From Acidobacteriota bacterium (GTDB lineage Bacteria; Acidobacteriota; Vicinamibacteria; Vicinamibacterales; CAVVIG01): DNA of 49,132 nt. The stretch spans positions 13,170-62,301 of the forward strand of contig JAHFUI010000008.1 of the NCBI GenBank assembly GCA_023265175.1, written 5' to 3'. The position numbers and the translations under genes are program-made. Positions 1,213 to 45,154 of this stretch are shown here, in pieces; within the stretch, counting starts at the first letter, position 1, and every line of letters begins with the position of its first letter. The notes beneath the pieces are model-generated. The model had not been told where the DNA came from. It did not search any database and saw only the letters and a program-made list of their open reading frames with translations.

Positions 1213-2069
1213 GCTTCAGCAGCTCTACGCTGGCGCGCGACGTCTTCAGCGCGTGGGGGTGGGGCTCCACGCGCAACAAGAGCATGAAATGCTGCCACGA
1301 GGGCCGCAAACTCTCGCGGGCGAGTGATCGATCCAAGGTGTCCGGTTCGTTCGAGGACGCCGTGGCGCGCACCAGCGATCGAATCCATGTACGCCATGGT
1401 GCCGTCGACCGGCACGACATGGTCCAGGCTGCGCTCACCGGTCACGATCAGCGTCGGCGCGACGATCCGGGCGCAATCATCCCGAAGGTTGGTGTTCGCA
1501 ATGAGCGCCGCGCGAGCGGCCATCCGTGCCGGTGAAAGCGGCGCCCGAATGACGGCGGCCAGCTGTCGGCAGACAAAGCGCCAGCGCGCGCCGAGGCGCG
1601 GAAAGGCCGACCGGATCTCGTCGCGAAGCCGGAACGGCGACTCGGCCAGAAACAGCGGCCCAAAAAGCCAGGGCCAACGCGCGTACAGCCGATGGCGGGG
1701 CCGCAGGCGCCAGCCCGGGCCCGGCGCCGACACCAGAATGAGCGCCGCGGTGCGTTCCGGACACCGCGCCGCGAATCGGATCGCCGGAAGCGCGCCGAAG
1801 GAGATGCCGCAAATCACCGCGCGCTGGATGTCTGAGTGGTCGAGGACTGCGGTGACCTGACGGACGTCGTTGTCGATGCCGAGCGCCGGATCGAGCGGCT
1901 GGTCGCACCCCGGCTCACCGCGCAGCGGAAACGTCAGCGTGCGGAACGACGGCGCGAGCGCGTCGATAGCCGGACGCAGGTACTCCCATCGGCCCTGGAT
2001 GCCGGGAATCAGGACGAGCGGAGGACCCGCTCCGAACGCGAGCACGGATCGATCCTCAAATTTGGTCAT
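1158..2069 (-). CDS. Alpha/beta fold hydrolase
   Basis: PLVLIPGIQG oxyanion region, GISFG nucleophile elbow, PTLIVTGE..D and a C-terminal GH. Confidence 0.88.
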   Translation of the reverse strand: MTKFEDRSVLAFGAGPPLVLIPGIQGRWEYLRPAIDALAPSFRTLTFPLRGEPGCDQPLDPALGIDNDVRQVTAVLDHSDIQRAVICGISFGALPAIRFAARCPERTAALILVSAPGPGWRLRPRHRLYARWPWLFGPLFLAESPFRLRDEIRSAFPRLGARWRFVCRQLAAVIRAPLSPARMAARAALIANTNLRDDCARIVAPTLIVTGERSLDHVVPVDGTMAYMDSIAGARHGVLERTGHLGSITRPREFAALVAAFHALVARGAPPPRAEDVARQRRAAEAGSDLDFCGNLAHAKIKI

Positions 2070-2151
2070 CTGGTCATCTGGTAATCGGGTAATTCAATTG
2101 GTCGATTGAACAATCCAATTACCCGATTATCCATTTACTCGATTATCCGAT
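2063..2151. repeat. 8-nt periodic repeat hairpin (TGGTCATC/TGGTAATC units, then inverted GATTATCC-type units)
   Basis: Four units at 2063-2094 and four inverted units at 2117-2148. Core 13-bp perfect IR at 2082-2094/2117-2129. Confidence 0.85.
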
Positions 2152-4461
2152 TCAGTTTCTGAGCGTCTTTCCCGTCTTGAGCGTGTACTGAATGCGATCG
2201 AGCGTCTTCGGCTCGCCGCACAATTTTAAGAACGCTTCGCGCTCGAGGTCCAGCAGGTACGTCTCGCTGACGATGGTCTGATGCGGCAGAGAACCCCCCG
2301 AGAGAATTGAAGCAAGGACGCGGCCGATTGTTGCGTCGTGATCGCTGATGCGTCCCGCGCGCCATGCCAGGTGGACGCCGAGCTTGAGTGCGGCCAGGAC
2401 GCCGCCGCCGCCGACCGGAATCGCGCGCGGCGCAGGCTTGTGGTATCTCTCGCGTACGCGTTCCAGCGCGAGCGCTTTGGCGTCCGCCATCACCCGCTCG
2501 CGGTTCATCGTGGATTGATCGAGGGGCCTGAGATAACCAAGCCGTCTGCCGTCCTCGGCACTTGTCGAGACCTTCGCGAAACCGATCGTCTCGAAGGCAC
2601 GCTGAACGAACGGCAGAAGATTCGCCTGCGCTGGGAGACCGTCGACCATTCTGGCCAGCATCTCCTTGGTGCCCCCGCCCGCCGGGATGAGGCCGACGCC
2701 GACTTCGACCAGCCCGATATATGTTTCCGCCGCCGCCTGCACCCGATCGGCGTGAAGGACGATCTCGCAACCGCCGCCCAGCGTCAGACCGGCCGGACAC
2801 GAGACGACGGGTACATCCCCGTAGCGCAGTGCCTGCGTCGCACCTTGAAACGCGCGCACCATCGCATCGATCTCGTCCCAGTTGCCTTCCTGCGCCTCGA
2901 GCAGCAGCAGCATGAGGTTTGCGCCAGCGGAGAAGTTCGGCGCATCGTTGCCAACGACGAGCGCTTGAAAATTTGCGGCCGCCTCCTTGACGCCCGCGTG
3001 GAGCATCTGGATGGTATCGGCACCGATGGCGTTCATCTTCGAATGAAACTCGAGCGCGAGGACGCCGTCGCCGATGTCGACGAGGCTTGCGCCGGGATTG
3101 CGCCGGACGATCCGCTGGCGGTCTTTCGCGGCTTTCAGAATCTGTAGACCAGGTCCGGCCGTCGGCACGCCGTCCTCGCGGAAGCGATTGGAGCCGGCGC
3201 GCAACACCTGGTCGAGGAGCGACGGAACCTGGGCGTGATCACCCACTGCTTCGAGCACCTCACGGACGCCGATCGCATCCCAAGTCTCGAACGGTCCCAG
3301 CTCCCAACCGAACCCCCACTTCATCGCGCGATCCACATCGTCTATCGAGTGCGCGATGGACAAAGCGATGCGCGCGGTGTAGATCAACGTCGCTCCAAGC
3401 GTGCGGCGGAGGAACGTGCCGACCTTGTCGTGGCCCAGAAACAGCGACCTGATCCTGGCGCCGACATCTTCTATCGGCCGCGCCGCGTCGAGCGGCGGCA
3501 GGCGCGCCGGCAGCTTGGCGCGATAGGTGAGCGTGGCGGGATCGAGGGTGAGGATGTCCGACGGTGCTGTTTCGGCTGCGGCTGTCGCGCGCGGGCGCTC
3601 GCGCTTGTAAAACCCCTGGCCGGCCTTCTCGCCGATCCATCCCCGCTCGATCAGCGCGTCCACCAGCGGAGGCAGTCGAAAGAGGGCACGCGCCTCGTGG
3701 TCCGGCAGGTGCTCTGTGAGATTTCGGGCGACGTGTCCGAGCACGTCGATGCCGGCGATGTCCGCGGTGCGGAAGGTGGCGCTCTTCGGCCGGCCGAGAG
3801 CCGGACCGGTCATGGCATCGATCTCTTCGATCGTGTACTCGCCGGTCTCGAGCGCGCGCAGCACCTGAATCATGCCGAACAGACCGATGTGGTTCGCGAT
3901 GAAGTTCGGCGTGTCTTTCGCGATCACCACGCCTTTGCCGAGATGGACGTCGGCGAACCGCGATACGCGATTGAGGACGGCGGGATCGGTGTCGGCCGTC
4001 GGAATGACTTCGAGGAGCCGGAGGTATCGAGGCGGGTTGAAGAAGTGCGTCCCCAGCCAGTGGCGGCGGAAATCGTCGCTCCGGCCCGCCGATAACGCGG
4101 CGATCGGAATGCCCGAGGTGTTGGACGTGACGATCGTTCCGGGTCGTCGGACCGCATCGACACGCTCGAGCAGCGACTGCTTGACGTCAATCCGCTCGAC
4201 GACCGCTTCGACGATCCAGCCGACGTCGCGCAATCGAGCAAGGTCGCGATCGAAGCCGCCGGTCTCAATCAGCCGCGCGATGTCGGACGTGAAGAACGGA
4301 TCCGGTTTCAGGCCTCGTGCGCGCTCGAGTCCCTCGCGCGCGACTTCGTCCGTCAGATCCAGCAGCAGCGCCGGCACGCCGGCATTCGCGAAGTGCGCCG
4401 CGATCTGCGCGCCCATCGTTCCCGCGCCGAGGACAGCGACCGACCGAATCGATGCCGACAT
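2152..4461 (-). CDS. fadN: 3-hydroxyacyl-CoA dehydrogenase / enoyl-CoA hydratase (FadN type)
   Basis: N-terminal VAVLGAGTMGAQIAAH Rossmann motif, SNTSG, HFFNPPRY, and a C-terminal crotonase domain (FSAGANL, LGGGCE, GLVEVGVGLIPAGGG). Confidence 0.93.
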   Translation of the reverse strand: MSASIRSVAVLGAGTMGAQIAAHFANAGVPALLLDLTDEVAREGLERARGLKPDPFFTSDIARLIETGGFDRDLARLRDVGWIVEAVVERIDVKQSLLERVDAVRRPGTIVTSNTSGIPIAALSAGRSDDFRRHWLGTHFFNPPRYLRLLEVIPTADTDPAVLNRVSRFADVHLGKGVVIAKDTPNFIANHIGLFGMIQVLRALETGEYTIEEIDAMTGPALGRPKSATFRTADIAGIDVLGHVARNLTEHLPDHEARALFRLPPLVDALIERGWIGEKAGQGFYKRERPRATAAAETAPSDILTLDPATLTYRAKLPARLPPLDAARPIEDVGARIRSLFLGHDKVGTFLRRTLGATLIYTARIALSIAHSIDDVDRAMKWGFGWELGPFETWDAIGVREVLEAVGDHAQVPSLLDQVLRAGSNRFREDGVPTAGPGLQILKAAKDRQRIVRRNPGASLVDIGDGVLALEFHSKMNAIGADTIQMLHAGVKEAAANFQALVVGNDAPNFSAGANLMLLLLEAQEGNWDEIDAMVRAFQGATQALRYGDVPVVSCPAGLTLGGGCEIVLHADRVQAAAETYIGLVEVGVGLIPAGGGTKEMLARMVDGLPAQANLLPFVQRAFETIGFAKVSTSAEDGRRLGYLRPLDQSTMNRERVMADAKALALERVRERYHKPAPRAIPVGGGGVLAALKLGVHLAWRAGRISDHDATIGRVLASILSGGSLPHQTIVSETYLLDLEREAFLKLCGEPKTLDRIQYTLKTGKTLRN

Positions 4462-4591
4462 CTCACCTTAAATGTAGTCGAACTGCGGTGGCCTGTGGCT
4501 TACCTGCACTCCGAGCGAACACGTCCAAATGCCGGACTTATGGCAGAAAACGCACGGAATGTTCTCGAGGACGATGGTAGGATTTTGGAAT

Positions 4592-4715
4592 ATGGCGGTC
4601 AAACGCGAAGCCAGCATCGAGGATCTGTATCACGTCGAGGGCAAGGCCCAACGGGCAGGTGGCATGTCCCGTATGCAATCTTTCTAAGTCGAACACCGTC
4701 ACTACTGGTGTCTAG
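4592..4715 (+). pseudogene. Chimeric remnant: Uma2/DUF820-like endonuclease N-terminus joined out of frame to an HNH endonuclease C-terminus
   Basis: ATG 4592 gives MAVKREASIEDLYHVEGKA. The frame starting at 4650 gives NGQVACPVCNLSKSNTVTTGV*. Family assignments are from recalled motif similarity only. Confidence 0.6.
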
Positions 4716-5049: not shown

Positions 5050-5069
5050 CCCGCTACACCATCCAGCCT

Positions 5070-7271
5070 TTAGTACTTGGCGGTGTCGTGAATCGCCTGC
5101 AGGACGTCGGCGGTTTGCGGCAGGATCGCGTCTTCGAGATCGGGGTTGTAGGCGACGGGCGTGTCGAGGGCGCCGACGCGTCTGACCGGCGCATCGAGAT
5201 ATTCGAAGAGATCGCTGGCGATCCGTGCGGCGATTTCGGCGCCGAAGCCGCACGTCAACTGATCTTCATGCGCGATGACCACGCGGTTGGTGCGCTTCAC
5301 CTGCGCGGCGATGGCCTCCCAGTCGTACGGCGCGATCGTCCGTAGATCCAGCACCGCGACGCTGATGCCGTCCTTCTCCGCCTGATGCGCGGCGACGATG
5401 GTCCGCTGGACCAGCGCGCCCCAGGCGACCACCAGCACGTCGGTGCCTTCCTGCCGCAGGCTGGCTTTTCCAAACGGGATCATGAAGTCTTTGCCGGGAT
5501 ACTCGGCCTTGTTGTACGTCTGCCGATACAGGTGTTTGTGTTCGAGAAACAACACCGGATCGTCGCAGCGGATCGCGGTGCGCAGGAGGCCCGCGGCGTC
5601 CATCGCGTTGGACGGAAACACCACCCGGATGCCGGGGCAGTGCGCGAAGATGCTCTCGCCCGACTGGCTGTGATACGGCCCGCCGCCGCGCAGGTAGCCG
5701 CCGATCGCCGTGCGAATCACCATCGGGCACGAGTAGGTGTTGCCCGATCGGTACCGCATCATCGACATCTCGTCGCGCAGTTGCATCATCGCGGGCCAGA
5801 TGTAATCGAAGAACTGGATCTCGACGACCGGCTTGAGGCCGCGGATCGCCATCCCGACGCCGCGCCCGATGATGTTGGCCTCGGCCAGCGGCGAATTGAA
5901 CACGCGATTCTCGCCGTACAGCCGCTGCAGGCCGTGCGTCAGCTTGAAGACGCCGCCCTTTCCGGTGACGACGGCCAGCGCTTCCTTCCGGCTGGCGTCC
6001 GCCACGTCTTCGCCGAAGACGACAATGCGCGGGTTGTGCGCCATTTCGTCCTTGAGCGTGCGATTGATCGCCGCCACCATCGTGTCCGGCTTGCCGTCGG
6101 GTTGTGCCCGTGTTTCGAACGCGGACGAGGTGGGGTCCACGTCGGGGGAGTAGACCCAGAGCGCCGCGGTGTCTCTGGCCGGCTGCGGCGCGTGAAGCGC
6201 TTCGAGCGCGGCGTCGTTGATTTCGCGCTCGACGTCGGCAAGCATGGCCGCGAGGTCGCGATCGGTCGCCAGCCCGTTGTCCTTCAGAAACTCGGCAGAT
6301 CGGGTGATGGGATCGCGCCGCGCCTCCGCTTCGCGCTCCGCGGGCGTCTTGTACAGGCGCTCATCGTCTGAGAGAGAATGCGAGTACGGGCGGATGCACC
6401 GTGCGTGCACGAACGCCGGCCCGTTGCGGGCGCGCACGTACGCCGCCGCGGTGCGCATCGCGCGCACGCTCGCCAGAAAATCGGTACCGTCGATCGAATC
6501 GACGTGGAGGCTGGGAAACGAACGCACGAGCCGCGAGATGTCGCCGCCCGGCGTCTGGAACTCGACCGGCACTGAAATCGCGTAGCCGTTGTCTTCGATC
6601 AGAAACAAGACCGGCAAGCGTCGCAAGCACGTCGTGCCGAGCGCCTCCCAGAACTCGCCTTCGCTCGTCGCGCCTTCACCAAGCGACGTGAACACGATGT
6701 CGTCCGCGTGAAACCGTGACGCGCGATCCTCGATGTCAGCGACGCGGCTGTAGATAACGCTGGCGTCAGCCGCGCCAACCGCGTGCAGGACCTGCGTGCC
6801 GGTGGGACTCGATCCCGAGACGATGTTGAGCGCCGTGTTGGCCCAGTGCGACGGCATCTGGCGGCCGCCTGAGCTTGGGTCGGCGCTGCTGCCGACGGCA
6901 GCCAGCAGCATCTCGAGCGGCGTCACGCCAAGCTGCAGGCACAAGGCGCGGTCGCGATAGTACGGAAAGAACCAGTCGTATGCCGGCTTCAGCGCCAGGC
7001 CGGCGGCGATCTGGATCGCCTCGTGCCCCGCGCCGCTGATCTGAAAGAAGATTTTGCTTTGGTGCTTGAGCTGGATCTCCTTGTCGTCAAGCTTGCGCGA
7101 CAGGAGCATCGTGCGATGCGCGCGCAGCAAGGCGTCTTGATCCAGGCCGTGGAAGATTACACCGCTCGATTGACTCGCGGCACCGCTCAATTGGTTCGCG
7201 GTGCTCGATTGACTCGCGGCGTCCGATTGCCCGCCCACAGCTTCGCTGCCGTTGACGACAGACGATTTCAT
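5070..7271 (-). CDS. 2-oxoacid (probably branched-chain) dehydrogenase E1, fused alpha/beta subunits
   Basis: GRQMPSH, TPP-binding [14 protein letters not shown]...DNGYAIS, HSLSDD, and beta-part [30 protein letters not shown]. Confidence 0.93.
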
Positions 7272-7279
7272 CGGCGCAA

Positions 7280-7739: not shown

Positions 7740-7754
7740 AAGGCGGTGGTTCGT

Positions 7755-10606: not shown

Positions 10607-10607
10607 T

Positions 10608-20424: not shown

Positions 20425-20485
20425 ACCACGAAGCACACAAAGGCCACAAAGATTTCTTTGTGGGCTTTGTGACCTTGGTGGTTCA
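20422..20485. repeat. 9-nt periodic repeat hairpin (ACCACGAAG CACACAAAG GCCACAAAG and inverse)
   Basis: 30-bp arms (26/30 matches) around an ATTT loop. Begins with the rsmH TGA stop. Confidence 0.9.
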
Positions 20486-28397: not shown

Positions 28398-28417
28398 TGT
28401 CCGGCTTCAGCCGGACC
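28394..28417 (+). repeat. GTAG-family REP-like palindrome GTAGTGTCCGGCTTCAGCCGGACC
   Basis: GTAG foot followed by an 8-bp-arm palindrome. The foot overlaps the murD TAG stop. Confidence 0.85.
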
Positions 28418-28421
28418 AGAC

Positions 28422-28547
28422 GTGAGCGGTGAGCAGTCGTCAGTCGGTTTATCGCGGTGAAGGACTGGCTGCTGGGAACGCAGGCTGCCCCGGTCTGCGA
28501 AGCTGGTGCCCTTGCCCGAGGCCGACTGATGACTGCTGGCCGCTCAC
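28422..28547. repeat. 26-bp imperfect inverted repeat built from 7-nt units around a 74-nt spacer
   Basis: Arms 28422-28447 and 28522-28547, 23/26 matches. Confidence 0.8.
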
Positions 28548-28815
28548 GGCGATCCTACCGCGCGCGCGATGTGAGGGCGCACGGACGTGTGACCGGCGCC
28601 GGCCGTTGTTTCGGGTGGAGCGCGGTTCAGCTATAGGCACGGCCCGAAGGCCGCGCGCGACACACGAAACGTCGTCGAAACGTTGGGCCGGGCCTTTACG
28701 CCCGGCCGCCCTAGCCGTCTTGAGTCCCAAGAACTTGCACCGAATGAGTCAAGTTTTTCGGTCAAGACGGCTAGCCCCCGCGCAGCGGGGCTGTGATGAA
28801 GGCGGACTAGGAGAT

Positions 28816-29916
28816 ATGGCTCGCAAGCTGAAGTCCGACCCCGCGCTGTTCATCGCGACCATCCTGTTGGTCGCGCTGAGCATCGTCATGGTCTACAGCG
28901 CCTCGGCTGTCGTGGCGATGGAGCGGACCGGACGCCCCTACTTCTTCTTGACGAAACAGGGGCTCTGGGCCGCGCTCGGCATCGCCGTGCTCGGCGTGGC
29001 CATGCGGATTGATTATCGGACCTACAAAGAGCCGGCATTCATCTGGTCGTCGCTCGCGTTCGTCACGCTCGGCCTGGTTGCGGTGTTGTTCAGCCCTCCA
29101 GTGAACAACGCGCGGCGGTGGTTCTCCATCGGCGGACTGGGGATTCAGCCGTCCGAGCTGGCGAAGCTGAGCGCGATCTTCTTCACGGCCGCCGTGCTCG
29201 AGCGCCGCATGAATCGGATCAACGAGCTGGGATACTCGCTCATTCCGATAGGTGCCGTCGTGGTGTGTCTCGTTGGACTGATTCTGCTCGAGCCCGATTT
29301 CGGCACCTCGATGTCGCTGGTGGCGATCGCCACCGTGATGGTGTTCGCCGCTGGCCTCAACTACACCTACATCCTCGGCGCCGCGCTCTGCGCGTTGCCG
29401 GCCATCGCGTTTCTCGTCATGGGCACCGCATACCGCCGCCAGCGCGTGCTGACGTTTCTCGATCCGTGGAACGATCCGCTCGGCGCCGGCTTCCAGATCA
29501 TTCAGTCGCTGATCGCCGTCGGCACTGGCGGGGTGTGGGGCAAGGGAGTGATGAACGGCGTGCAGAAGCTGTTCTTTCTCCCGGAGCCGCACACCGATTT
29601 CATTTATTCCGTCATCGCGGAAGAGCTCGGCCTCGTTGGCGCGACCGCGGTGGTCGTCTGCTTTTGCGTCATCGCATGGCGGGGCATGCGCGTGTCGCTC
29701 CGTGCGCCGGATCGCTTCGGTGCCTTTCTGGCGCTGGGGCTGACGACGATGGTGGCGGTCCAGGCGTTGGTCAACATCAGCGTGGTGCTCGGGCTGATGC
29801 CGACCAAGGGGATCCCGCTGCCGTTTGTCAGCGCGGGCGGGTCGTCGCTGCTGATCAACCTGCTCGGGATGGGGATTCTGTTGAACGTGTCGCAGCACGC
29901 TTCGTCGGAAGCATGA
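28816..29916 (+). CDS. ftsW: Peptidoglycan polymerase FtsW
   Basis: MVYSAS, NARRW, IQPSELAK, LEPDFGT, LPEPHTDFI, LMPTKGIPLPFVSAGGSS. AGGAGA precedes ATG 28816. Confidence 0.97.
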   Translation: MARKLKSDPALFIATILLVALSIVMVYSASAVVAMERTGRPYFFLTKQGLWAALGIAVLGVAMRIDYRTYKEPAFIWSSLAFVTLGLVAVLFSPPVNNARRWFSIGGLGIQPSELAKLSAIFFTAAVLERRMNRINELGYSLIPIGAVVVCLVGLILLEPDFGTSMSLVAIATVMVFAAGLNYTYILGAALCALPAIAFLVMGTAYRRQRVLTFLDPWNDPLGAGFQIIQSLIAVGTGGVWGKGVMNGVQKLFFLPEPHTDFIYSVIAEELGLVGATAVVVCFCVIAWRGMRVSLRAPDRFGAFLALGLTTMVAVQALVNISVVLGLMPTKGIPLPFVSAGGSSLLINLLGMGILLNVSQHASSEA

Positions 29917-31093: not shown

Positions 31094-31156
31094 TTCAGCG
31101 TTCAGCGTTCAGGGTTCTGGGTTCGGCTCCGGGTTGCGGGTTTGGGGTGCGGAGTG
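31094..31156. repeat. Degenerate 7-nt tandem repeat (TTCAGCG TTCAGCG TTCAGGG TTCTGGG ...) between murG and murC
   Basis: Visible 7-nt periodicity that decays into the murC GTG start. Confidence 0.7.
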
Positions 31157-36263: not shown

Positions 36264-38009
36264 ATGAAGTCCTGGGCCCAACGCGAACGCGCACTCGAAA
36301 TTCTGTCGAAAGAAGTCGGCTACGTTCGCAAGCCGCACGGCGGTCGTGTGCGCATCGCCCTCGCGTTTCCGAACACGTACTGGGTCGCGATGTCGAATCT
36401 TGGGTTCCAGACGGTCTATGGTCTGTTGAACGCGCAGGACAACATCGTGTGCGAGCGCGTCTTCCTGCCGCCCAAGCAGGAGCTCGCGGAGCTTCTCACC
36501 GCGAAAGCGCCTCTCGTCACCCTCGAATCGCAGACGCCCGTGGCAGAGTTCGACGTGTTCGCGTTTTCCGTCTCCTTCGAATGGGATTACGTGAACGTCC
36601 TCACGCTGCTGCGCCTTGCCGGCATTCCGGGACGCGCAGCCGAGCGCGACACGCGACATCCGCTGATCGTGATCGGCGGGGCGGTGACCTTCGTCAATCC
36701 CGAACCGCTAGCGCCGTTCGCCGACGTCATCGCCGTCGGCGAAGGCGAATCCTTGATTCCCGCGTTCGATCGCGCGCTGTCGGCGGCGACCGGTCGCGAC
36801 GATCTCTTGCGCCGCCTCGCGACCGAGCGCGGCTTCTACATTCCGCGCTTCTACGAGCCGCAGTACGCGCCGGACGGCACGCTCGCCGGCTACGCCACGT
36901 CCCCCGGCGTGGACGCGCCGGTCCCCGTCCGCAAAGCGGCGCTGAAAACCACGGAGGCGGTTGATCCGCCCGCGACCAGCGTCTTCACGCCTGACACTGA
37001 ATTCGGATCCCGGTTCCTGATCGAGGTCGTCCGAGGTTGTGCCAACTTGTGCCGCTTCTGCTGGGCCGGCTACAACTACCTGCCGGTTCGCGCGTTTCCG
37101 ACCGAACGCATCCTCGATCTGGCTGCTGCGGCGCGACCTCACGCCAGCCGCGTCGGGTTGGTGTCCATCGCCCTGTGCGATCACCCCGACATCGAAGGAA
37201 TTCTGGCGCGGCTCAACGAGATGGGCTATTCAATCAGTCCGGCGTCGCTCCGCCTCGACGATCTCACCGAGTCGATCGTCCGGGTGTTGCGCGAGAGCGG
37301 GGAGCGGACGATCACGATTGCGCCCGAAACCGGGTCCGATCGCCTCCGTCGCGTCGTCAACAAAACCGTCACGAACGACGAAATCCTCGATCGCGCGGAG
37401 CTGATTTTCGCCAGCGGGATCGAGAACCTGAAGCTGTACTACATGATCGGCCTTCCAACCGAGACGGACGAGGACCTCGTCGCGATTCGCGATCTGACGA
37501 TCCAGCTGCGCGAGTGCATGATGAAGCACGCGCGCGGGCGGGGCACGATCGGCCGAATCATCGGCAGCGTGAATCCGCTCGTGCCAAAGCCGGGGACGGC
37601 CTACCAGTGGCTGCCCATGGAAGATCCGACTGTCGTCGACAAGAAGATCAAGCGGCTGCGCGGCCTGACTGCGGACCTCGACAACGTGTACTTCAACATC
37701 AAGTCAGAACGGCATTCGTACCATCAAGCGCTGCTGTCCCTCGGCGACCGCCGGGTTGCGGCCGCGATCGAGGCGGCCGAGCGCAACGGCCAGCAATGGA
37801 GCGCTGCCGTGGCCGAAGCGGGCGTCGACGCGGACTCTTACATCTTTCGCGACCGCTCGCATGACGCCGTCCTGCCCTGGGACATCATCGACGGCGGCAT
37901 GAACGCGTCCTTTCTCCAGGCCGAGTTCGCCAAGGGCCTGCGCGAGGAATGGACGCTCCCCCTGAAACGACAGCAGGAAAACGCGCGCGTGCTGCCGGTC
38001 ATAGGGTGA
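36264..38009 (+). CDS. Radical SAM protein with an N-terminal B12-binding-like domain
   Basis: EVVRGCANLCRFC (CxxxCxxC), FPNTYWVAMSNLGFQ, APETGSDRLR, KLYYMIGLPTE. Confidence 0.9.
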   Translation: MKSWAQRERALEILSKEVGYVRKPHGGRVRIALAFPNTYWVAMSNLGFQTVYGLLNAQDNIVCERVFLPPKQELAELLTAKAPLVTLESQTPVAEFDVFAFSVSFEWDYVNVLTLLRLAGIPGRAAERDTRHPLIVIGGAVTFVNPEPLAPFADVIAVGEGESLIPAFDRALSAATGRDDLLRRLATERGFYIPRFYEPQYAPDGTLAGYATSPGVDAPVPVRKAALKTTEAVDPPATSVFTPDTEFGSRFLIEVVRGCANLCRFCWAGYNYLPVRAFPTERILDLAAAARPHASRVGLVSIALCDHPDIEGILARLNEMGYSISPASLRLDDLTESIVRVLRESGERTITIAPETGSDRLRRVVNKTVTNDEILDRAELIFASGIENLKLYYMIGLPTETDEDLVAIRDLTIQLRECMMKHARGRGTIGRIIGSVNPLVPKPGTAYQWLPMEDPTVVDKKIKRLRGLTADLDNVYFNIKSERHSYHQALLSLGDRRVAAAIEAAERNGQQWSAAVAEAGVDADSYIFRDRSHDAVLPWDIIDGGMNASFLQAEFAKGLREEWTLPLKRQQENARVLPVIG

Positions 38010-38010
38010 C

Positions 38011-38071
38011 ATCGGAATCTGGTAATTGAGTAATTTGGTAATTGCAATTGCCCGGTTACCAGATCCGATTA
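38011..38071. repeat. 8-nt periodic repeat hairpin, same family as 2063-2151
   Basis: TGGTAATT GAGTAATT TGGTAATT units and inverse AATTGCCC GGTTACCA, between convergent genes. Confidence 0.85.
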
Positions 38072-38374
38072 CGTCGCGATGGCGGCCCGCTCCTCGTACT
38101 CCTGATACGCCTGCAGAATGAGCTCACGCACGGTGTTTTGCGCCGTCGTGTCGACAATCGGCCGGAGCAGCGCGAAGCTGCGACGGTCGCCGTTGATCGT
38201 GTACGAGCGCGCCGGGAACGTGACGTTGTAACCACCCGCGCCACCGCGGCGTTCCCAGATGGAAAAGCCGATCAGCTTCAGGCCGTCGAGCGGCCCTTCC
38301 GTGAAATGCAATTCAGCCTCGGCGACTTTTCCAGGAGGGTTGCCCTTGTCGTTTGGCGTAATCTTGACGATCAT
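38069..38374 (-). CDS. Small SpoVG-like nucleic-acid-binding protein
   Basis: 101 aa with AAGGAG RBS. Pattern GKVAEAELHF...LKLIGFSIWE...NVTFPARSY...RELILQAY parallels SpoVG (A.V.F...I.GI.V......V.MPS....IL.AY). Confidence 0.7.
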   Translation of the reverse strand: MIVKITPNDKGNPPGKVAEAELHFTEGPLDGLKLIGFSIWERRGGAGGYNVTFPARSYTINGDRRSFALLRPIVDTTAQNTVRELILQAYQEYEERAAIAT

Positions 38375-38426
38375 AACAGTCTCCTTCGTAGTGACGCTGC
38401 GCAACCAGCCGCGCCGGACGACTCGC

Positions 38427-38505
38427 TAGGAGTCCGAGTAATGACCGAAACAGGCTCCTAAATTTAGCTAGGAGCGTGTTCCGGTTTCTCAGACACGCTC
38501 CTAGC
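38427..38505. repeat. Two tandem TAGGAG...CTCCTA inverted-repeat units
   Basis: 38427-38460 and 38467-38505. The second has perfect 13-bp arms GCTAGGAGCGTGT/ACACGCTCCTAGC. Confidence 0.75.
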
Positions 38506-38672
38506 GTCATCAAGACGAATGCCTGCGCGCGATTGCGGACGCGTCGACGTAACCGGTGGTGGAATTTGGGTTTTGGCGTGGTGCGATCTGAGCGGCCGAT
38601 CCGGAGGAGCTGAGGCCGGTGGTAAACGCCAACTGGCGTTGCGAACGCTGCGGAAGGGAGCTAACCGAGGAG

Positions 38673-39056
38673 CTAACCGCCGAGAATCAGGACCTGCGCC
38701 ATTGCCAATTCATCGGAATGCGTGATGGTCAGGAGCGACGATTGGCCGCCGATGGCGGTCAGCCGATGTCCGGCACCCCCGTGAAAACGCAGGTGCGGCG
38801 GGCCACCGTGGCGGACGACCTCGATATCGCACCACAGCACGCCCTGCGAGTGACCGGTCCCGAGCGCTTTCATGGCCGCCTCTTTCGCCGCGAAGCGGCC
38901 CGCGAAATGAATCGCGGGTACGCGCCGATGCGTGCAGTACGCAATCTCGCCGGCCGTGAAGATCCGCTGCAGAAAGCGGTCGCCATACCGTGCGATCGTC
39001 GCCTCGATGCGGTCGATATCGGTCGCATCGAACCCGAGCCCGATGATATTTGGCAT
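38673..39056 (-). CDS. acpS: Holo-[acyl-carrier-protein] synthase
   Basis: IIGLGFD, RFLQRIFT..E, AGRFAAKEAAMKALGTG, LTITHS. Confidence 0.96.
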   Translation of the reverse strand: MPNIIGLGFDATDIDRIEATIARYGDRFLQRIFTAGEIAYCTHRRVPAIHFAGRFAAKEAAMKALGTGHSQGVLWCDIEVVRHGGPPHLRFHGGAGHRLTAIGGQSSLLTITHSDELAMAQVLILGG

Positions 39057-39092
39057 AGTCTCTGCTCAAAGGGAAAACGCTCCACCACAGAA

Positions 39093-39926
39093 ATGATACT
39101 GCCTCAACCGAGCAGTGCGTTCGAATGGAGACAGTTGGACGCGGGAACGGCGCTCGTGTGCCGGCCGCTCGAAGCCATCGCCCGCCACCTGTTCACCACG
39201 CGGTCGTGGCCTCTGGGCTCATCCGGATCTACAGCCGGTGACGCCGCGAGCTGGAGCGATATCGCCAGATCGATGGACGTCGGGTCGGACCATTTGCTGC
39301 GAGTCCACCAAGTGCACGGCGCGAGCGTGGTCGTCCAGCGCACGGGACAGGCGAGGGCCGAGCACGCCGAGGCGGATGTGATCCTCAGCGACGATCCGTC
39401 GGTCGTGCCGAGCATCCAAACGGCGGACTGCGTGCCGCTGCTGATCGCCGATTCGCGGACCGGCTCGGTCGCGGCGGCGCATGCGGGCTGGCGGGGCGTC
39501 TCCCTTCGCGTGCCAGCGGTCACGGTGCGGGCGCTGGCGGAGGCATTCGGCAGCCGTCCGTCGGATCTTGTCGTCGCCATCGGGCCGGCGATAGGGTCGT
39601 GCTGCTATGAGGTCGGCACCGACGTACGGAGTCAGTTCGAAGCAGCCGGCTTTCCGGCCCCCGACCTGTCGCGCTGGTTCCACAGCGAGCCTGATCAATC
39701 ACCGACGAACCCACCGCTCAATGGATTGAGAAATCGCACAGGCCATTGGTTCCTGGATTTCTGGACCGCGGCGCGCGACCAGCTCATCGAAGCCGGCGTT
39801 CCAGCCGGTCAGGTGTTCGCGGCGGAGCTCTGCACCGCGAGCCATCCGGATGCGTTTTGCTCGTACCGACGCGATGGGTCGCGATCCGGCTGCCTGGCTG
39901 CAGCCATCAGGAAGTTTAAAGCCTAA
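39093..39926 (+). CDS. pgeF: Peptidoglycan editing factor PgeF (YfiH family)
   Basis: FTTR, QVHG, TADCVPLL, AAHAGWRG, IGPAIGSCCYEVG, CT, SYRRDG. Confidence 0.94.
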   Translation: MILPQPSSAFEWRQLDAGTALVCRPLEAIARHLFTTRSWPLGSSGSTAGDAASWSDIARSMDVGSDHLLRVHQVHGASVVVQRTGQARAEHAEADVILSDDPSVVPSIQTADCVPLLIADSRTGSVAAAHAGWRGVSLRVPAVTVRALAEAFGSRPSDLVVAIGPAIGSCCYEVGTDVRSQFEAAGFPAPDLSRWFHSEPDQSPTNPPLNGLRNRTGHWFLDFWTAARDQLIEAGVPAGQVFAAELCTASHPDAFCSYRRDGSRSGCLAAAIRKFKA

Positions 39927-40005
39927 AGTTCAAAGTGGAAAGCAAGTGGAAGTGGGAAGTACTTTGGACTTACTTCTAACTTTCGCCTTTGAACTTTGAA
40001 CTTCC
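39910..40005. repeat. 7-nt periodic repeat hairpin (AAGTTCA-type units and inverse TTGAACT)
   Basis: AAGTTTA AAGCCTA AAGTTCA AAGTGGA ... TTCGCCT TTGAACT TTGAACT. Contains both convergent stop codons. Confidence 0.85.
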
Positions 40006-40419
40006 ACGAAGCGGCGCGTCCATCGCGGCGTTCGCGAGCCGATCGGCGTGCGCGTTGAGCGCGCGGCCGACGTGTTCGAACGTCACGCGACCGATGTCGT
40101 GCGCGAGCAGGCGCGCGGCGGCGTACAGCGGCTTGAGGCCGGGGTGCTTCACCTTGTAGTTGCCGCGCATCTGCTGGACGAGGAGGAGCGAATCCGATCG
40201 CACGTGCACGGCGCGATGGCCGTGAGCCCGCGCCCATTCCAGCGCCGCAAGCAGCGCGCGATACTCGGCGACGTTGTTGGTCGCCACGCCAATCGATTCG
40301 CAGAACTCCTCGACGAGCGTGCCGTCGGCCTGCTCGATGCGGACGCCGTAGCCGGCCGGGCCGGGATTGCCGCGAGCGCCGCCGTCGATAGAGGCGACGA
40401 TTCCGGGTTCAGGGCTCAA
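39976..40419 (-). CDS. rnhA: Ribonuclease HI family protein
   Basis: IDGGARGNPGPAG, TNNVAEY, SDSLL, N.HADRLAN (D-E-D-D catalytic set). Start uncertain; TTG 40419 proposed. Confidence 0.9.
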   Translation of the reverse strand: MSPEPGIVASIDGGARGNPGPAGYGVRIEQADGTLVEEFCESIGVATNNVAEYRALLAALEWARAHGHRAVHVRSDSLLLVQQMRGNYKVKHPGLKPLYAAARLLAHDIGRVTFEHVGRALNAHADRLANAAMDAPLRGSSKFKGES

Positions 40420-40429
40420 GGTTCCGAAT

Positions 40430-41182
40430 TCAAGGTGCTGGCTGATCAACGTCGTCCGGCGTGGCGGCCGCCGCGGGGGTGGGCACAAAGTACAGGATGC
40501 GGTTGCAGCTGTCGCACTGTGTGATCGCGTCGTTGCGGCGCACCGTGTTGAACACCTGAGGGCGCAGGCGGACGTGGCAGATGGTGCAGATGCCATTGCG
40601 TGCCTCCGCGACGGCGATACCGTTGCGCTTGCGCGCCACCGACTCGAACACCGCGAGCACCTGTTTGTTCAGCGCCGCGACGATCTCGGCACGTTCGCCT
40701 TCGATGCGTTCGAGTAACGTCTGCAACTCGCCGTGTTCGGCGGTCATGCTCCGGCGGTCCGCGTCCACTGCTTTCTGTTCGGCCGCGAGCTCGGCCTCCG
40801 CGCGCTTGACCACGGCCGCGAGTTCGTCGGCTTCGAGCATCCGTTCGAGCACCTTGTCCTCGATCGTCTTCACCCCGCCCTGGGCAAACGCCATCTCCTT
40901 CTGCACCGCCTGGTATTCGACGTTCGTCTTCACCGCCATCAACTGATCGCGGAATTTGGACAACCGCCCTTGATGGAGCGCCACGTCTTTCTCGAGGGCG
41001 CGGCGCGCGTTCTGGTTCGTGGCGAGTTGCTCTTTGGAGGTGGCGACGCGGGTCCGCACCGCTTCGAGACGCGCCCGGAGCGCTTTTTCGCGCTCGGGTT
41101 CATCGGCAAGGCGGCGGCCGGCGGAGTCTGCGGCGGTGTCCAGCCGCTGGAGCGCGATCAGCCGTTCGAGGTCAGCATTCAT
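40430..41182 (-). CDS. Coiled-coil protein with C4-type zinc ribbon (DUF164 type)
   Basis: LIALQRLD N-terminus, long coiled coil, CTICHV...CDSCNRILY. Confidence 0.92.
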   Translation of the reverse strand: MNADLERLIALQRLDTAADSAGRRLADEPEREKALRARLEAVRTRVATSKEQLATNQNARRALEKDVALHQGRLSKFRDQLMAVKTNVEYQAVQKEMAFAQGGVKTIEDKVLERMLEADELAAVVKRAEAELAAEQKAVDADRRSMTAEHGELQTLLERIEGERAEIVAALNKQVLAVFESVARKRNGIAVAEARNGICTICHVRLRPQVFNTVRRNDAITQCDSCNRILYFVPTPAAAATPDDVDQPAP

Positions 41183-41192
41183 TCAGTCGGGC

Positions 41193-41221
41193 AAAAAAAA
41201 GGCCCCGCCGGGGCGGAGCCT
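41193..41221 (-). terminator. Intrinsic terminator after rpoD-tRNA
   Basis: Minus strand GGCTCCGC-CCCG-GCGGGGCC followed by T8. Confidence 0.85.
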
Positions 41222-41279
41222 GGATTCTCGCAATCAATCTGCAATCTGCGATCTTCAATTTGCCATTCCTTGGTCATGT

Positions 41280-41355
41280 TGGTGGGCCCACCAGGATTCG
41301 AACCTGGAACAGGCCGGTTATGAGCCGGCGGCTCTCACCGTTGAGCTATGGGCCC
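41280..41355 (-). tRNA. tRNA with CAT anticodon, most likely tRNA-Ile2 (lysidine)
   Basis: 76 nt GGGCCCA-TAGCTCAACGGT...CTCATAA...GGTTCGAATCC-TGGGCCC-ACCA. Paired G1-C72 and no GGG/CCC anticodon stem argue against initiator tRNA. Position after rpoD fits Ile2. Confidence 0.93.
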
Positions 41356-41360
41356 GAACC

Positions 41361-41500
41361 AGTCTACAGTCGACAGTCTTCAGTCGCCAGTCGGAATCGC
41401 ACGGTGACTGCCGACTGCCGACTGCCGACTGCCGACTGCCGACTGCCGACTGCCGACTGCCGACTGCCGACTGTCGACTGTCGACTGTCGACTGTCGACT
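41361..41500. repeat. Heptamer array (GACTGCC)9(GACTGTC)4 with a 5-unit inverted arm
   Basis: Array at 41406-41496. Inverse degenerate units AGTCTAC AGTCGAC AGTCTTC AGTCGCC AGTCGG at 41361-41394. Confidence 0.95.
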
Positions 41501-41503
41501 TGA

Positions 41504-43222
41504 CTACGTCGTTCGTCCTTCCAAAAACGCCCGGAGCTTCCGGCTCCGTGACGGATGACGGAGCTTACGCAGCGCCTTGGCTTCAATCTGACGGATCCGC
41601 TCGCGGGTCACGGCGAAGCTCTGGCCGACTTCTTCAAGCGTGTGCTCGCTGCCGTCCCCGACGCCGAAGCGCATCTTGATGACCCTTTCTTCACGCGGCG
41701 TGAGCGTCTTGAGGACCGACTCCGTCTGCTCCCTGAGATTCAGGTTGATCACCGCTTCGGCCGGCGAGACGACCTGACGGTCTTCGATGAAGTCGCCCAG
41801 ATGCGAATCTTCTTCTTCGCCGATCGGGGTCTCGAGCGAGATCGGCTCCTGCGCGATTTTGAGGACCTTGCGCACCTTCGACACCGGAATGTCCATGCGC
41901 TTGGCGATTTCCTCCGACGTCGGCTCGCGTCCGAGCTCCTGCACCAGCGCGCGCGAGGTGCGAATCAGCTTGTTGATCGTCTCGATCATGTGGACCGGGA
42001 TCCGGATCGTTCGCGCCTGATCCGCGATCGCGCGCGTGATGGCCTGTCGAATCCACCACGTCGCGTAGGTGGAGAACTTGTACCCGCGGCGGTACTCGAA
42101 TTTGTCGACCGCCTTCATCAACCCGATGTTGCCTTCCTGAATCAGGTCGAGGAACTGCAGCCCGCGGTTGGTGTACTTTTTCGCGATCGAGACGACGAGG
42201 CGAAGGTTGGCTTCGACGAGCTCTTTCTTGGCCTGCTCGGCCTGCCATTCACCGCGGATGATCGTCTCGAGCGTGGCCCTCAGTTCGTCGGGCGCCTGCC
42301 CGAGCTCGTCGGTCATCGTCTTGAGCGTGAGGCGCAGCTCCTTGATCTGGCGGACGGCGTTCTTCTTGTCCTCTTCCCTGAGCCGCTGCTTCTTGTTCTT
42401 GGGGTTCAGCTGGCGGATGACCGATTCGATCTCGCGCTGCACCTTCTGAACGGTATCGACCGCATCTTTCATGTCGTCGATCAGCCGGCGCTTCACCGAT
42501 TCGGTGAACTCGATCTTGCGGATGTAGGTCGACAGTTCGATGCGCGCGCGCATGGCCGCCCACCGCGCGCGTCGGTACTTGCGCTTGTCGCGGGTCGTCG
42601 CGCCTCGCGGCGTGTTGCGGAGCTTCTCCTCGAGCTTTTCCGACGCGGCGCGGGCCCTGCGGACCGCGTCGATCTGCTTCTGGACCTGCCTGGAGCGTTC
42701 CTGAATCCGTTCGTCCGTGATCTCTTCGTCGTTGAAGATGACGAGCTCGCGGATCGTTCGATCGCCGGCATACAGCTTGTCGCCGAGCTCGATCACTCGC
42801 CTGGCGATGAGCGGCGTCCGCGAGATCGATTTGATGACCGCCAGCTTCCCGCGCTCGATCCGGCGGGCGATCTCGACCTCGCCCTCGCGCGTGAGCAAGG
42901 GCACGGTGCCCATCTCGCGGAGATACATCCGGACCGGATCGTTCGTTTTGTCGAGCGCGCCCGGCGTGAGATCCAGCTCGAGCTCCTCCGCGCCCTCACC
43001 GGTCCGGTCGATCGGCTTGACATCGTCGCGCAGGTACTTCTGGTCCGAGTCGATGACCTCGATCCCCGCGCTGCCGAACGTGTTGAACAGGTCGTCGAGC
43101 TCATCGGAGGACGTGATTTCCGACGGCAGCAGCTCGTTGACTTCGTCGTAGAGCAGGTAGCCCTTTTCCTTGCCGATGGTGATGAGCTGCCGGACTTCGT
43201 CGTATTTTTCTTCGATCGACAA
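41504..43222 (-). CDS. rpoD: Primary sigma factor RpoD
   Basis: Region 1.1, [61 protein letters not shown] start at 43222 with GGAGG 8 nt upstream. Confidence 0.97.
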
Positions 43223-43305
43223 GTGCGTATCCTCCAATGCCCGCGAGCCCGGACTCCGGGCGGTCCCGCGCGCGCCGTCGCGTTCCTGCGCACCCCGCTC
43301 CGGGG

Positions 43306-45075
43306 TTACGTGAGCTCTTCGATCCGATGAATGAGGTTTATCTTTCGTTGCCACAGTGCGTCTATCTCATGTCCATACTGACCGGCTCCCAGCCCTTGGA
43401 GCCGGTCGATTTCCCGTTGAATAGCAGCGCGCTCACGCTCCCACCTCAACCGCTTGATGGCCCGGGCGCAGTCGGCGGCCGGGGCGGGCGGCGTGGGGTT
43501 GGCGGCGATGCTGGTGACCAGCTGATTGTTCACCGTACTTAGACGCTGCAAAAGGGCCGACGGTGAGAACGTGCCCGACTGATCGTGCAGGTTCCGGGCC
43601 ATTTCGAAGACTTCGCGGCCAGCCAAGGCGTCCAAATCCTCCCCATCGAGCCCGACCATCGCGTCGAATGCTTCTCGAGGATTATGGATCAGCGCCCAAA
43701 TAAGCCCCTTTTCCGCGTATTTCATCTGTCCGAACGACGGCAGCTCGCGGTCGGTCAGGGTGGCTCGGCGGCTGACCGCCGCCTTGCGAATCTCGGCGCG
43801 GACCACCTCTTCTGTAATGCGCGCCTTGTGCGCAATCCGATCGCCAAATTGGTCCCGCGCGGCGGGGTCTGGAATCCTGGCCGCCACCGCGAGCATCTTT
43901 GCGAGGAACTGGCGCCGGTCGTCGTCCTGGCCGAAGTCGAGCCCGGCGGCCGCCTGGTCGAGCAGATATTCCAAGTATGGCCGAGAATTGCGCAGCCTCT
44001 CACGGTATTGATCCGGGCCGTTGCGTCGAACGTACGTATCGGGATCTTGCCCCGGATCCAGCACCGCGACGTTGACGTCGAAGCCTTCGGCGACGAGCAG
44101 CTCGCACGACCGGACGGCCGCACCCTGACCGGCCGCGTCGGGGTCATAGCTGAGGACGACCTTGGTCGTGAACCGCCGAAGCAATTGCGCCTGCTGCGGC
44201 GTGAGCGCCGTGCCGCACGAGGCGACGACTGGCGCCGCGTTGGACTGGAACACCTGCGCGAAATCGAAATAGCCTTCCACGAGCACGGCGTACCCGAGCT
44301 GGCGAATCGCCGCTTTCGACAGGTTCAGCCCGTAAAGCGTGCGCCCTTTCGAGTAGATCGGCGTCTCGGGCGAGTTGAGATATTTCGGCACCTGGTCGGC
44401 GTCCATGGCGCGGCCGCCGAAGGCAATCACCGATCCCGAATCGCGGCAGATCGGGACCATCAGCCGGTTGCGAAAGCGATCGACGATATCCCCGTTGTCG
44501 CGTTGGACGATCAATCCACTCTGCACCAGAAGACCTTGCGCGAATCCGTGCGCGAGCAGCGCGTTCTTCAAGGCCGTCGACGCAGTCGGGGCGAAGCCGA
44601 GCCCCAGCGACTCGATCGCCTTCGCGTCGACGCCACGATCGGCGAGCTGACGTCGTGCGCGAGCGCCGGCGGGGCTGGCGAGCTGCTCGCGGAAGAATGC
44701 CGCCGCAATCTCGTGGACTTTGAGGAGCGACTCACGCACGCTGGCATCCCGCCTGGCATCGTCAGAGGAGCCTTCGGTCTCCTCGGGCACCGCGACCCCG
44801 AACTTCTGCGCCAGCATGCGCACGGCGTCCTGGAAGCCAATCTTTTCGTGAAGCTCGAGAAACTTGAAGACATCGCCGCCGACGTTGCAGCCAAAGCAAT
44901 GAAAGAATCCTTTATCAGGATTGACCGAGAACGACGGCGTCTTCTCCGAATGAAACGGACAGAGTCCCTTGAACGTCGTGCCCGCCCGCTTCAGCGGCAC
45001 GTACTCCTGGATGACCTGCACGATGTTCGCCTGCAGACGCAGATCGTCGATAAACCGTTGTGGAAACAGGCCCAT
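43306..45075 (-). CDS. dnaG: DNA primase
   Basis: [11 protein letters not shown]...CFGC zinc finger, [34 protein letters not shown]. Confidence 0.97.
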
Positions 45076-45076
45076 G

Positions 45077-45154
45077 AAATGCAAAATGCAAAACGCATGA
45101 TGCAAAACGCGCGATGCGAGGTTGGTCACATTGCGCATTCTGCATTGTGCATTA
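45077..45154. repeat. 7-nt periodic repeat hairpin (AAATGCA units and inverse TGCATT)
   Basis: Six units at 45077-45118 and four inverted units at 45127-45154, filling the mutS2-dnaG gap. Confidence 0.88.

Follow-up and report, generated by a model that had tools for sequence, protein, structure and literature searches.

The 49,132-nt stretch of DNA from an Acidobacteriota bacterium analysed in this study (hereafter the window; positions 13170-62301 of contig C144 of genome assembly G000) carries, at junctions between genes of core operons, hairpins whose arms are built of short tandem repeats. The overall best explanation of these hairpins, and in our judgement a likely one, is that they represent the gene-less form of miniature gene cassettes. 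That the empty hairpins and the gene-bearing cassettes constitute one element family is very probable.

A full cassette consists of an open reading frame (ORF) of ~300-350 nt with inverted arrays of a short unit on its two sides; in many cases there is also an outer inverted repeat specific to the family. At least two classes of cassettes exist, and they follow different unit rules. In class 1 the ORF encodes a GxxExxY protein (TIGR04256, equivalent to Pfam PDDEXK_3) and the arms are composed of 8-10-mers with the core CRCRRAG. In class 2 it encodes a four-helix-bundle protein (TIGR02436/PF05635, called “23S rRNA intervening-sequence protein”) and the arms are mostly heptamers, specific for each cassette lineage. 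An empty copy keeps the arms and the outer repeats around a loop of 0-40 nt, and therefore folds as a hairpin.

An earlier note on this DNA had proposed that the junction repeats were written or mobilised by one mechanism, such as the empty form of a small mobile cassette or a templated addition of repeats, and had mentioned, as an unverified link, that similar arms flank four-helix-bundle and GxxExxY genes elsewhere. This link holds in G000, in 30 relatives, in other phyla and in metagenomes. The data favour the empty-cassette reading. We infer mobility itself from the turnover of copies, the repeated targeting of a single very short spacer, bursts confined to particular lineages and decaying remnants. 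A single mechanism does not follow from them, given the two or more classes with different unit rules.

Repeat hairpins and gene cassettes in G000

The assembly G000 (4.92 Mb in 308 contigs, 64.5% G+C, 96.8% complete) was searched for tandem arrays of the TRF type with a period of 7-9 nt and at least three copies, and inverted pairs of arrays were counted when separated by no more than 60 nt. The gene calls were our own and crude (start codons may be set inside hairpins), and assigned 87.5% of G000 to coding sequence. This census revealed 181 inverted pairs versus no direct pairs, and 163 of the 181 lie mostly outside called genes. The intergenic DNA contains 128 inverted pairs and 893 arrays, compared with 0, 0 and 0 pairs and 78, 56 and 91 arrays in three third-order Markov simulations of the same DNA. 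Measured against chance, as the earlier note had advised, the density of the repeats is thus clearly in excess.

Scanning and clustering of the inverted pairs, also advised there, showed that the units recur throughout the genome as a few dozen families with tens of copies each, and that some copies enclose a PF05635 or GxxExxY ORF. The assertion that each locus has a unit of its own is therefore correct within the window, but not genome-wide. The largest family is of the TGGTTATC type (96 + 37 arrays), followed by the GACTGNC type (65 + 29 arrays), CACGAAAA (35), CACAAAGGA (34), AGCCTCC (30), AAAATGC (26), AATTAGG and AAGTGAGG (24 each) and AAAGTTC (15). The G+C content of the units is mostly 29-57%. 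Elements of one family end sharply, possess an outer inverted repeat that is non-periodic and specific to the family and, at times, contain a conserved inner palindrome. Neighbouring junctions tend to have hairpins of one family, a hint of local spread.

The gene-bearing copies were identified by a profile search of G000, which detected two four-helix-bundle genes (PF05635/TIGR02436) and two GxxExxY genes (TIGR04256), the products of the latter also matching PF13366 PDDEXK_3 at 2e-39 and 2e-36. All four genes are bracketed by arrays: the GxxExxY genes lie within CACAAAGGA and CACGAAGA arms, and the four-helix-bundle genes within TGGTTATC and GACTGAC arms. Each of these four families also comprises 12-40 or more empty hairpins, which have the outer repeats, too, in common with the filled copies. 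With regard to the window, the arms that bracket a GxxExxY or PF05635 gene in G000 recur as the CACAAAGGA type at 20422-20485, as GACTGNC at 41361-41500, and in a relative of the TGGTTATC family; the AAATGCA, AAGTTCA and AATCTGC units yielded no filled copy in this genome. A fifth cassette, on contig C52, has AATTAGG arms and an ORF interrupted by a run of N. Its 58-residue ORF fragment produced no match in Pfam, and the assignment was made solely via a relative in genome G002, a four-helix-bundle gene with the same arms, to which it shows 65% identity over 51 residues.

Several inverted pairs spaced more widely (600-950 nt apart) were considered as filled cassettes and rejected, as they proved to be separate hairpins flanking ordinary genes (rpsJ, trpF-like, grpE-like and others). 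The ribosomal protein S10 gene at C188:11315-11809, for example, has hairpins of one family (CTGGAGG/AGCCTCC) on either side. Another candidate, C20:79109-79580, was without a recognisable ORF. Runs of N, which may be assembly gaps, were observed in or beside repeat arrays of G000 at C55:56721-56947, C66:10213-10451, C154:13321-13496 and C52:19623-19722. Our counts of hairpins and cassettes are therefore minimum figures.

Turnover at orthologous junctions

Thirty-one genomes of one order were compared; two of them, G001 and G002, belong to the genus of G000. The gene order from the radical-SAM gene to mutS2 is maintained in 19 relatives, and its junctions were compared across 16-19 genomes. 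At dnaG|mutS2 the spacer measures 0-20 nt in 14 of 19 genomes, and in G000, G003, G004, G005 and G007 it contains an insert of 65-113 nt, the units differing between them. These inserts are clear hairpins in four genomes (those of G003, G005 and G007 as judged by eye; arm pairing in G004 was not checked), and in G001 the two genes overlap at this site. This shows that one tight junction has been hit independently by different families.

Arrays are present at the junction of the radical-SAM gene with the 111-aa ORF in two of 17 genomes (G000 and G014; the spacer is 29 nt in G001 and 21 nt in G002), at pgeF|rnhA in two of 16 (G000 and G010), and in the spacer from the CT398-like gene through the tRNA gene to rpoD in 11 of 18. 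The rpoD|dnaG junction has none in any of 19 genomes. Within the genus, the rsmH|ftsL spacer is 64 nt long in G000 versus 16 nt in G001, and the tRNA|rpoD spacer 148 nt versus 16 nt. G001 has no repeat hairpin at any of the four alignable junctions (these two, the radical-SAM junction and dnaG|mutS2); the flank of pgeF|rnhA was not located in that genome, and the comparison left out 2063-2151. Filled copies and differences in presence at orthologous junctions, both of which the earlier note had asked to be sought, were thus found.

Occurrence in relatives, other phyla and metagenomes

A TIGR04256 match is present in 17 of the 31 genomes of the order, and a PF05635 match in 24. Only inverted pairs of the same unit were accepted as evidence in the flanks; a looser measure (at least one flank array) was discarded because 56% of ordinary G000 genes have some flank array at a low TRF threshold. 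Inverted same-unit arms were found at 15 of the 30 GxxExxY loci and 17 of the 31 PF05635 loci of the relatives, against a background of 19 of 3897 ordinary G000 genes (0.49%). The arms of the GxxExxY genes are 8-9-mers of the type CRCRRAGRA; in those of the four-helix-bundle genes heptamers predominate, and these come in many sequences. GxxExxY remnants with frameshifts or truncations continue to adjoin arms.

The abundance of the units follows the presence of the genes, CRCRRAG arrays being confined to genomes with a GxxExxY gene. Runs of three CRCVRAG motifs number 11-190 per genome where a GxxExxY match is present (17 relatives) and 0-6 where it is lacking (14 relatives), and the reversed-pattern control gives 0-12 per genome. 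Overlapping matches to an AGTCNNC array number 608 in G000, 21 in G001, 0 in G002 and 80 in G010, and there are none in any of the seven genomes lacking PF05635. In samples of 200 kb, inverted pairs were absent from two genomes without either gene and from G008 and G028, numbered two in G015 and three in G013, and ranged from 0 to 16 in twelve samples of G000; the numbers of hairpins therefore do not scale with the gene count.

More widely, GxxExxY genes were surveyed at the 80 best loci of a species collection, covering, as judged from record titles, Bacteroidota, Acidobacteriota, Chloroflexota, Planctomycetota, Verrucomicrobiota, Proteobacteria and others. At least two CRCVRAG motifs were found upstream at 51 of the 80 loci, at least two reverse motifs downstream at 62, and both at 45. 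The best flank arrays have periods of 9 (62 arrays), 8 (24) and 10 (17), and there are 3.95 arrays per kb of flank versus 0.89 per kb further out. For PF05635, 80 metagenome loci (G+C content 31-67%) were retrieved with a close subset of the four-helix-bundle proteins as the query. Full flanks were available at 56 of them. Arrays border the gene on both sides at 44 of these loci and on a single side at 12, so that no locus is free of arrays; the arrangement is inverted with the same unit at 30 loci and direct at one, and 115 of the 135 best arrays have a period of 7.

Cassette proteins

In an alignment of 12 GxxExxY sequences, residues G19, E22, Y25, D62, E72 and K74 are invariant. The structure model (predicted local distance difference test score 86.7) matches solely PD-(D/E)XK nucleases (for example Cas4, Hjc and the nuclease domain of AddAB), and these weakly (best E 8e-3). 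Foldseek gave no match to the model at E<=0.001, and the GxxExxY profile, run against the sequences of solved structures, gave none at E<=1. Having the D...(D/E)xK motif and, in the model, a restriction-endonuclease-like fold, the protein is a predicted nuclease of the PD-(D/E)XK type.

Placement, folding and transcription

The placement of the hairpins was analysed for 169 of the 181 pairs, after removal of G+C-rich units, N-containing copies and cases at contig edges. They occupy 136 co-directional, 18 convergent and 15 divergent junctions, a mix close to that of the background (2897, 589 and 597, respectively). Their position within the junctions is narrowly defined: the hairpin starts at a median of 2 nt past the stop codon and ends at a median of 9 nt ahead of the next called start, and 75% of hairpin junctions keep no more than 30 nt of other spacer versus 2.6% expected for random insertion per intergenic base. 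In 58 of the 136 co-directional cases the stop codon lies inside the array or a perfect extension of it. The idea that the elements as a rule carry their own TGA was dropped, as the upstream stops (66 TGA, 43 TAG and 27 TAA) match those of the whole genome.

Contigs from three metatranscriptome runs cover shares of 0.04-0.09 of positions 37900-45300 of the window, in a patchy manner. One RNA-library contig of 313 nt spans 37982-38293, across the hairpin at 38011-38071, although such contigs show neither RNA ends nor strand and may stem from carried-over DNA. The depth over 41358-41604 is inflated by multi-copy repeats.

Possible mechanism and alternative explanations

[quoted passage not shown] By this analogy, the cassette proteins would act on empty copies as parent transposons act on MITEs, and the repeated units would serve as multiple protein-binding sites. 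The arms would lengthen and shorten afterwards by slippage, which would explain their unequal lengths. The long stems, if transcribed, may be substrates of RNase III, as is the intervening sequence of Coxiella, and their cleavage might cut the operon mRNA or release the cassette ORF.

Several observations weigh against the cassette interpretation. Neither a transposition event nor a target duplication or excision footprint came to light, and the four junction alignments with G001 are without clear boundaries; neither cassette protein family is a known transposase. The arms are direct instead of inverted in two cassettes (the GACTGAC cassette of C20, and L087), only one arm is present at three of the ten window loci, and the array at 41233-41267, being conserved in place, looks retained across four genera rather than turned over. 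The numbers do not scale with the genes, there being 55 CRCVRAG hairpins but two GxxExxY genes in G000, and no inverted pair in the 200-kb sample of G028 despite six PF05635 matches. At 13-23 of the 80 GxxExxY loci of the species collection the opposite arrangement of motifs is also seen, often as a whole hairpin beside the gene. The sense and antisense RNA folds of the hairpins do not differ (74 vs 62, Wilcoxon p = 0.21), and thus give no sign of selection on RNA. Finally, the co-occurrence of genes and arrays overstates independence since the 31 relatives are kin, though the pattern is patchy across families.

Some of these points are shared by the main rival explanation, namely that slippage during replication, together with strand-switch copying of one arm onto the other, forms the hairpins in place, and that small genes home into the existing loops, the hairpins being landing sites and not derivatives. 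The great surplus of empty hairpins over genes would agree with such an origin, as would GxxExxY genes that lie beside a complete hairpin rather than within one, and arms of unequal and variable length (Coxiella strains likewise differ in heptamer number according to the available part of PMC4990558); polymerase slippage was proposed earlier for the excess of heptamers in the portions accessible of PMC4679880 and PMC4692102. We nevertheless regard it as unlikely, for slippage alone leaves unexplained the CRCRRAG core that recurs across phyla beside one protein family, the near-absence of CRCVRAG arrays in the 14 relatives without GxxExxY, the sharp ends with their family-specific non-periodic outer repeats, and the inserts of five genomes, with different units, in a spacer otherwise of 0-20 nt. 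That a reverse transcriptase or telomerase-like enzyme writes the arms from a template, as the earlier note had also envisaged, is very improbable. The units are strictly periodic, and the PF05635 family includes the accessory protein of diversity-generating retroelements; yet the only RVT_1 match in G000 is a fragment below the cut-off (24.8 vs 29.6 bits) with an internal stop, no reverse transcriptase adjoins the inspected cassettes, and the GxxExxY cassettes share the architecture although they lack a four-helix-bundle protein.

A different kind of explanation would make the hairpins host regulatory elements under selection (stems for RNA processing or stabilisation, translational couplers, or protein-binding sites in operons), to which the cassette genes would be incidental. 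The exact placement after stops and ~9 nt before starts, the 136 co-directional junctions out of 169, the RNA-library contig that runs through the 38011-38071 hairpin into both neighbours, and the AATCTGC array kept after tRNA-Met in four genera would all suit such a role, and similar roles were proposed for the repeats of Geobacter and Beggiatoaceae in the accessible sections of PMC2700814 and PMC4679880. A regulatory origin is still less probable than slippage in place, given that the same-genus G001 has no repeat hairpin at four aligned core-operon junctions, that most genomes of the family are bare there, and that one junction bears unrelated units in different genomes; the near-background mix of junction types and the folding without strand asymmetry also speak against it. 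Ordinary intrinsic terminators are the least credible explanation of all. Stable stems after stop codons would be expected of them, but TTTT within 14 nt downstream was found for just four of the 136 co-directional-junction hairpins, which bears out the lack of U-tracts recorded in the earlier note. The hairpins, moreover, lie mostly inside operons a few bases ahead of the next start, and the terminator-like site of the window (41194-41222, a G+C stem plus an A/T run) looks different. Gene-less cassettes thus remain the preferred reading of the hairpins.

The ten loci of the window

The earlier note listed ten junctions with repeat hairpins. Two inverted arrays of one 7-10-nt unit within 60 nt are present at six of them, and these six loci fold as hairpins in which both arms are degenerate tandem units of 7-9 nt (z -3.9 to -11.1, each locus being compared with 200 shuffles). 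Three others (31094-31156, 40401-40435 and 41233-41267) lack the second array and are one-arm arrays that fold no better than the shuffles (z +0.3 to +0.8), and the tenth is a conserved structure present as a single copy. The core-operon setting, by contrast, was described correctly: Pfam searches of selected ORFs place the loci in a beta-oxidation group (thiolase, hydrolase, FadB-like), in the dcw cluster from mraZ to ftsZ, and among genes for a radical-SAM protein, pgeF, rnhA, a CT398-like protein, tRNA-Met, rpoD, dnaG and mutS2.

The empty hairpin of the GxxExxY type, located between rsmH and ftsL at 20422-20485 (z -7.83), has a 9-mer unit with the core CACAAAG. Each of its arms (20422-20452 and 20455-20485, 87% complementary) contains three CACRRAG units, and the hairpin opens with the three bases of the rsmH stop codon. 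The arm family is that of the filled cassette at C89:59987-60450, and this is the sole CRCVRAG hairpin found in the contig of the window. The hairpin at 41361-41500, between tRNA-Met and the rpoD stop (z -11.14), has unequal arms of ~5 and 13 GACTGYC heptamers (13.6 copies with a 98% match according to TRF), and its unit family also brackets the four-helix-bundle gene at C20:58507-59066. At 2063-2151, an empty hairpin detected by TRF, with 8-mer arms of the TGGTCATC/TGGTAATC type related to the largest unit family, TGGTTATC, occupies the gap from the stop of the FadB-like gene (2152) to the start of the abhydrolase gene (2069), and has a folding energy of -33.9 kcal/mol (z -5.29). The remaining three empty hairpins are found at 38011-38071 (8-mer TGGTAATT arms, between the radical-SAM gene and the convergent 111-aa ORF; z -5.74), at 39910-40005 (arms of AAGTTCA-type heptamers, between pgeF and the convergent rnhA; z -3.94) and at 45077-45154 (AAATGCA heptamer arms, from the mutS2 stop to the dnaG start; z -4.99).

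As for the single-armed loci, 31094-31156 (plus strand, murG to murC) is an array of degenerate TTCAGCG/TTCAGGG heptamers without a hairpin (4.4 copies by TRF; z +0.84), and G001 has unrelated sequence at this junction. The weak heptamer-like run at 40401-40435, at the junction of rnhA and the CT398-like gene (z +0.74), was missed by TRF and is of doubtful membership; a similar GGGTTCAGGG run occurs at this junction in G001. The array at 41233-41267 (minus strand; 4.1 copies by TRF, z +0.33), again not a hairpin, consists of AATCTGC heptamers directly downstream of tRNA-Met, and arrays of CAATCTG, CAATCAG or TCTGCAA are found at the same junction in G005, G009 and G014, which represent three other genera.

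The tenth locus, given in the earlier note as 28422-28547, is a long stem-loop of 133 nt between murD and ftsW (28420-28552, plus strand; -87.7 kcal/mol, z -8.65 for 28422-28547) that does not belong to the repeat hairpins. It gives one BLAST match in G000, and its outer stem has a faint heptamer rhythm. Over the stretch in common, the G001 sequence is identical and the G002 sequence nearly so, although the flanking genes are ~85% identical. No Rfam match was obtained for 28380-28830, even at E<=1. The stem-loop could represent an unknown structured RNA. In G001 the murD|ftsW spacer (L118, G001:C113) contains a GAACTTA-type heptamer hairpin directly after this stem-loop, and none is present there in G000. 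A short REP-like palindrome with a stem of ~8 bp and a 4-nt loop lies at 28395-28425 and has ~40 BLAST matches in G000 and many in G001 and G002; it represents a second repeat family, which is non-periodic.

Three further features were observed in the window. A perfect, non-periodic palindrome with 23-nt arms at 1154-1212, at the thiolase/abhydrolase junction, overlaps the end of the abhydrolase ORF, and copies related to it lie on six or more further contigs. At 7160-7220 a 21-nt unit is present in three copies, at a single locus in G000 that is unrelated to the short-unit hairpins; by our gene calls, these copies fall within the 5' end of the ORF for the E1 dehydrogenase (minus strand, 5070-7271), ~50 nt inward of the called start. 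ARAGORN predicted an 86-nt tRNA-Gly(ccc) at 21670-21755 on the minus strand, within the ftsI coding region; this is probably false, as it is not confirmed at the Rfam gathering cut-off, which in the window only a tRNA passes.

Relation to known elements

Of the systems previously described, the intervening sequences of 23S rRNA that carry a PF05635 (“S23p”) ORF in Coxiella and Leptospira are alike in having a four-helix-bundle ORF between terminal inverted repeats that form a long stem. According to the accessible part of PMC4990558, the terminal stem of the Coxiella sequence, 28 bp long, contains 2-3 tandem heptamers, which differ between strains, and RNase III cleaves the sequence there. PF05635 genes have also been noted wedged between cas genes (PMC3936711, in the text available), and in rRNA insertions of bacteria of the candidate phyla radiation, where ORF-less forms occur as well and the elements are regarded as selfish (bioRxiv 2024.02.27.582315, in the portion at hand). 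The elements described here differ in that they lie between protein-coding genes, are mostly gene-less, have arms of up to 30 or more units and include, with the same architecture, a second, unrelated ORF class (GxxExxY). An interpretation of the window hairpins as such intervening sequences was rejected, as all are located between protein or tRNA genes.

Tandem 7-nt units between genes, in tens to hundreds per genome, are otherwise known as the STRR, GGGAATC, TAACTGA and Geobacter repeats. The accessible sections of PMC4692102 report heptamer repeats between genes of Xanthomonas and Nostoc, some in convergent pairs, and cite a report on Calothrix repeats. In Xanthomonas, 70-75 convergent pairs are able to form stem-loops, the length varies between close relatives, and the repeats are generally without association to mobile elements. 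Many TAACTGA repeats of Beggiatoaceae end 1 nt ahead of start codons (PMC4679880, in part), and Geobacter has heptanucleotide sets between genes (PMC2700814, in part). Such repeats have been recorded for decades without an accepted origin, slippage being the sole offer in the available text of PMC4692102 and PMC4679880; the same sections, together with those of PMC2700814, contain no agreed function and draw no link to PF05635 or GxxExxY. What distinguishes our elements from these repeats is the link to cassettes, which is shown here. No statement of a general link between repeats and cassettes was found in full-text searches, and one may be in print in subscription journals or database family descriptions, which lay outside our reach.

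The other comparisons are more distant. Like REP/REPIN-RAYT systems, the hairpins are extragenic palindromes, often inverted pairs that form hairpins; they number in the hundreds and fall into several families per genome, and the same repeats flank a protein gene that is present once. However, the arms are tandem short-unit arrays and not one palindrome, the protein families are different, and a REP/REPIN-RAYT system was rejected since the Y1 transposase (PF01797) has no match in the 96.8%-complete G000 (control genomes did match). MITEs, too, are short non-coding derivatives that keep the ends of a gene-bearing element and outnumber it, and inverted ends and gene-bearing relatives are present here, but the hairpins have no recognised transposase, no duplication visible at the four alignable junctions, periodic ends and a tight stop/start placement. 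Integron cassettes with attC resemble them in tying a small promoterless ORF to an imperfect palindrome that folds as a hairpin. The present cassettes, in contrast, are single and scattered at junctions instead of forming an array at an integron platform, the palindrome brackets the ORF, and no integrase, none being sought, was seen beside them. A CRISPR array was rejected because the 7-9 nt units run head to tail without spacers, and so was membership of the intrinsic terminators, the G+C-rich stem with a U-tract being absent.

Implications

It is conceivable, though we think it rather doubtful, that much of the excess of 7-10-nt intergenic tandem repeats in bacteria is the footprint of two mini-cassette families and their gene-less offspring, including the cyanobacterial STRR repeats, the GGGAATC pairs of Xanthomonas and comparable sets. 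The PD-(D/E)XK nuclease of ~115 residues and the four-helix-bundle protein would then each recognise a unit of its own, and insertion would take place as a hairpin at stop/start junctions and at the tips of rRNA and RNase P helices. If true, hairpin insertion at such structured or boundary sites would be a mode of movement unlike any described transposase.

The reading of the hairpins as gene-less cassettes also has practical consequences. Inverted arrays of one short unit can be used in annotation as the mark of an empty cassette, likely RNase III sites are flagged inside essential operons, and many assembly gaps would be explained, the runs of N in G000 falling inside such arrays. PF05635 and GxxExxY proteins, widespread small proteins without a known role, are now tied to intergenic heptamer repeats. 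This provides a testable account in which the repeats would be the ends of tiny selfish cassettes, the proteins candidates for the recognition of these ends, and the hairpins in core operons their litter.

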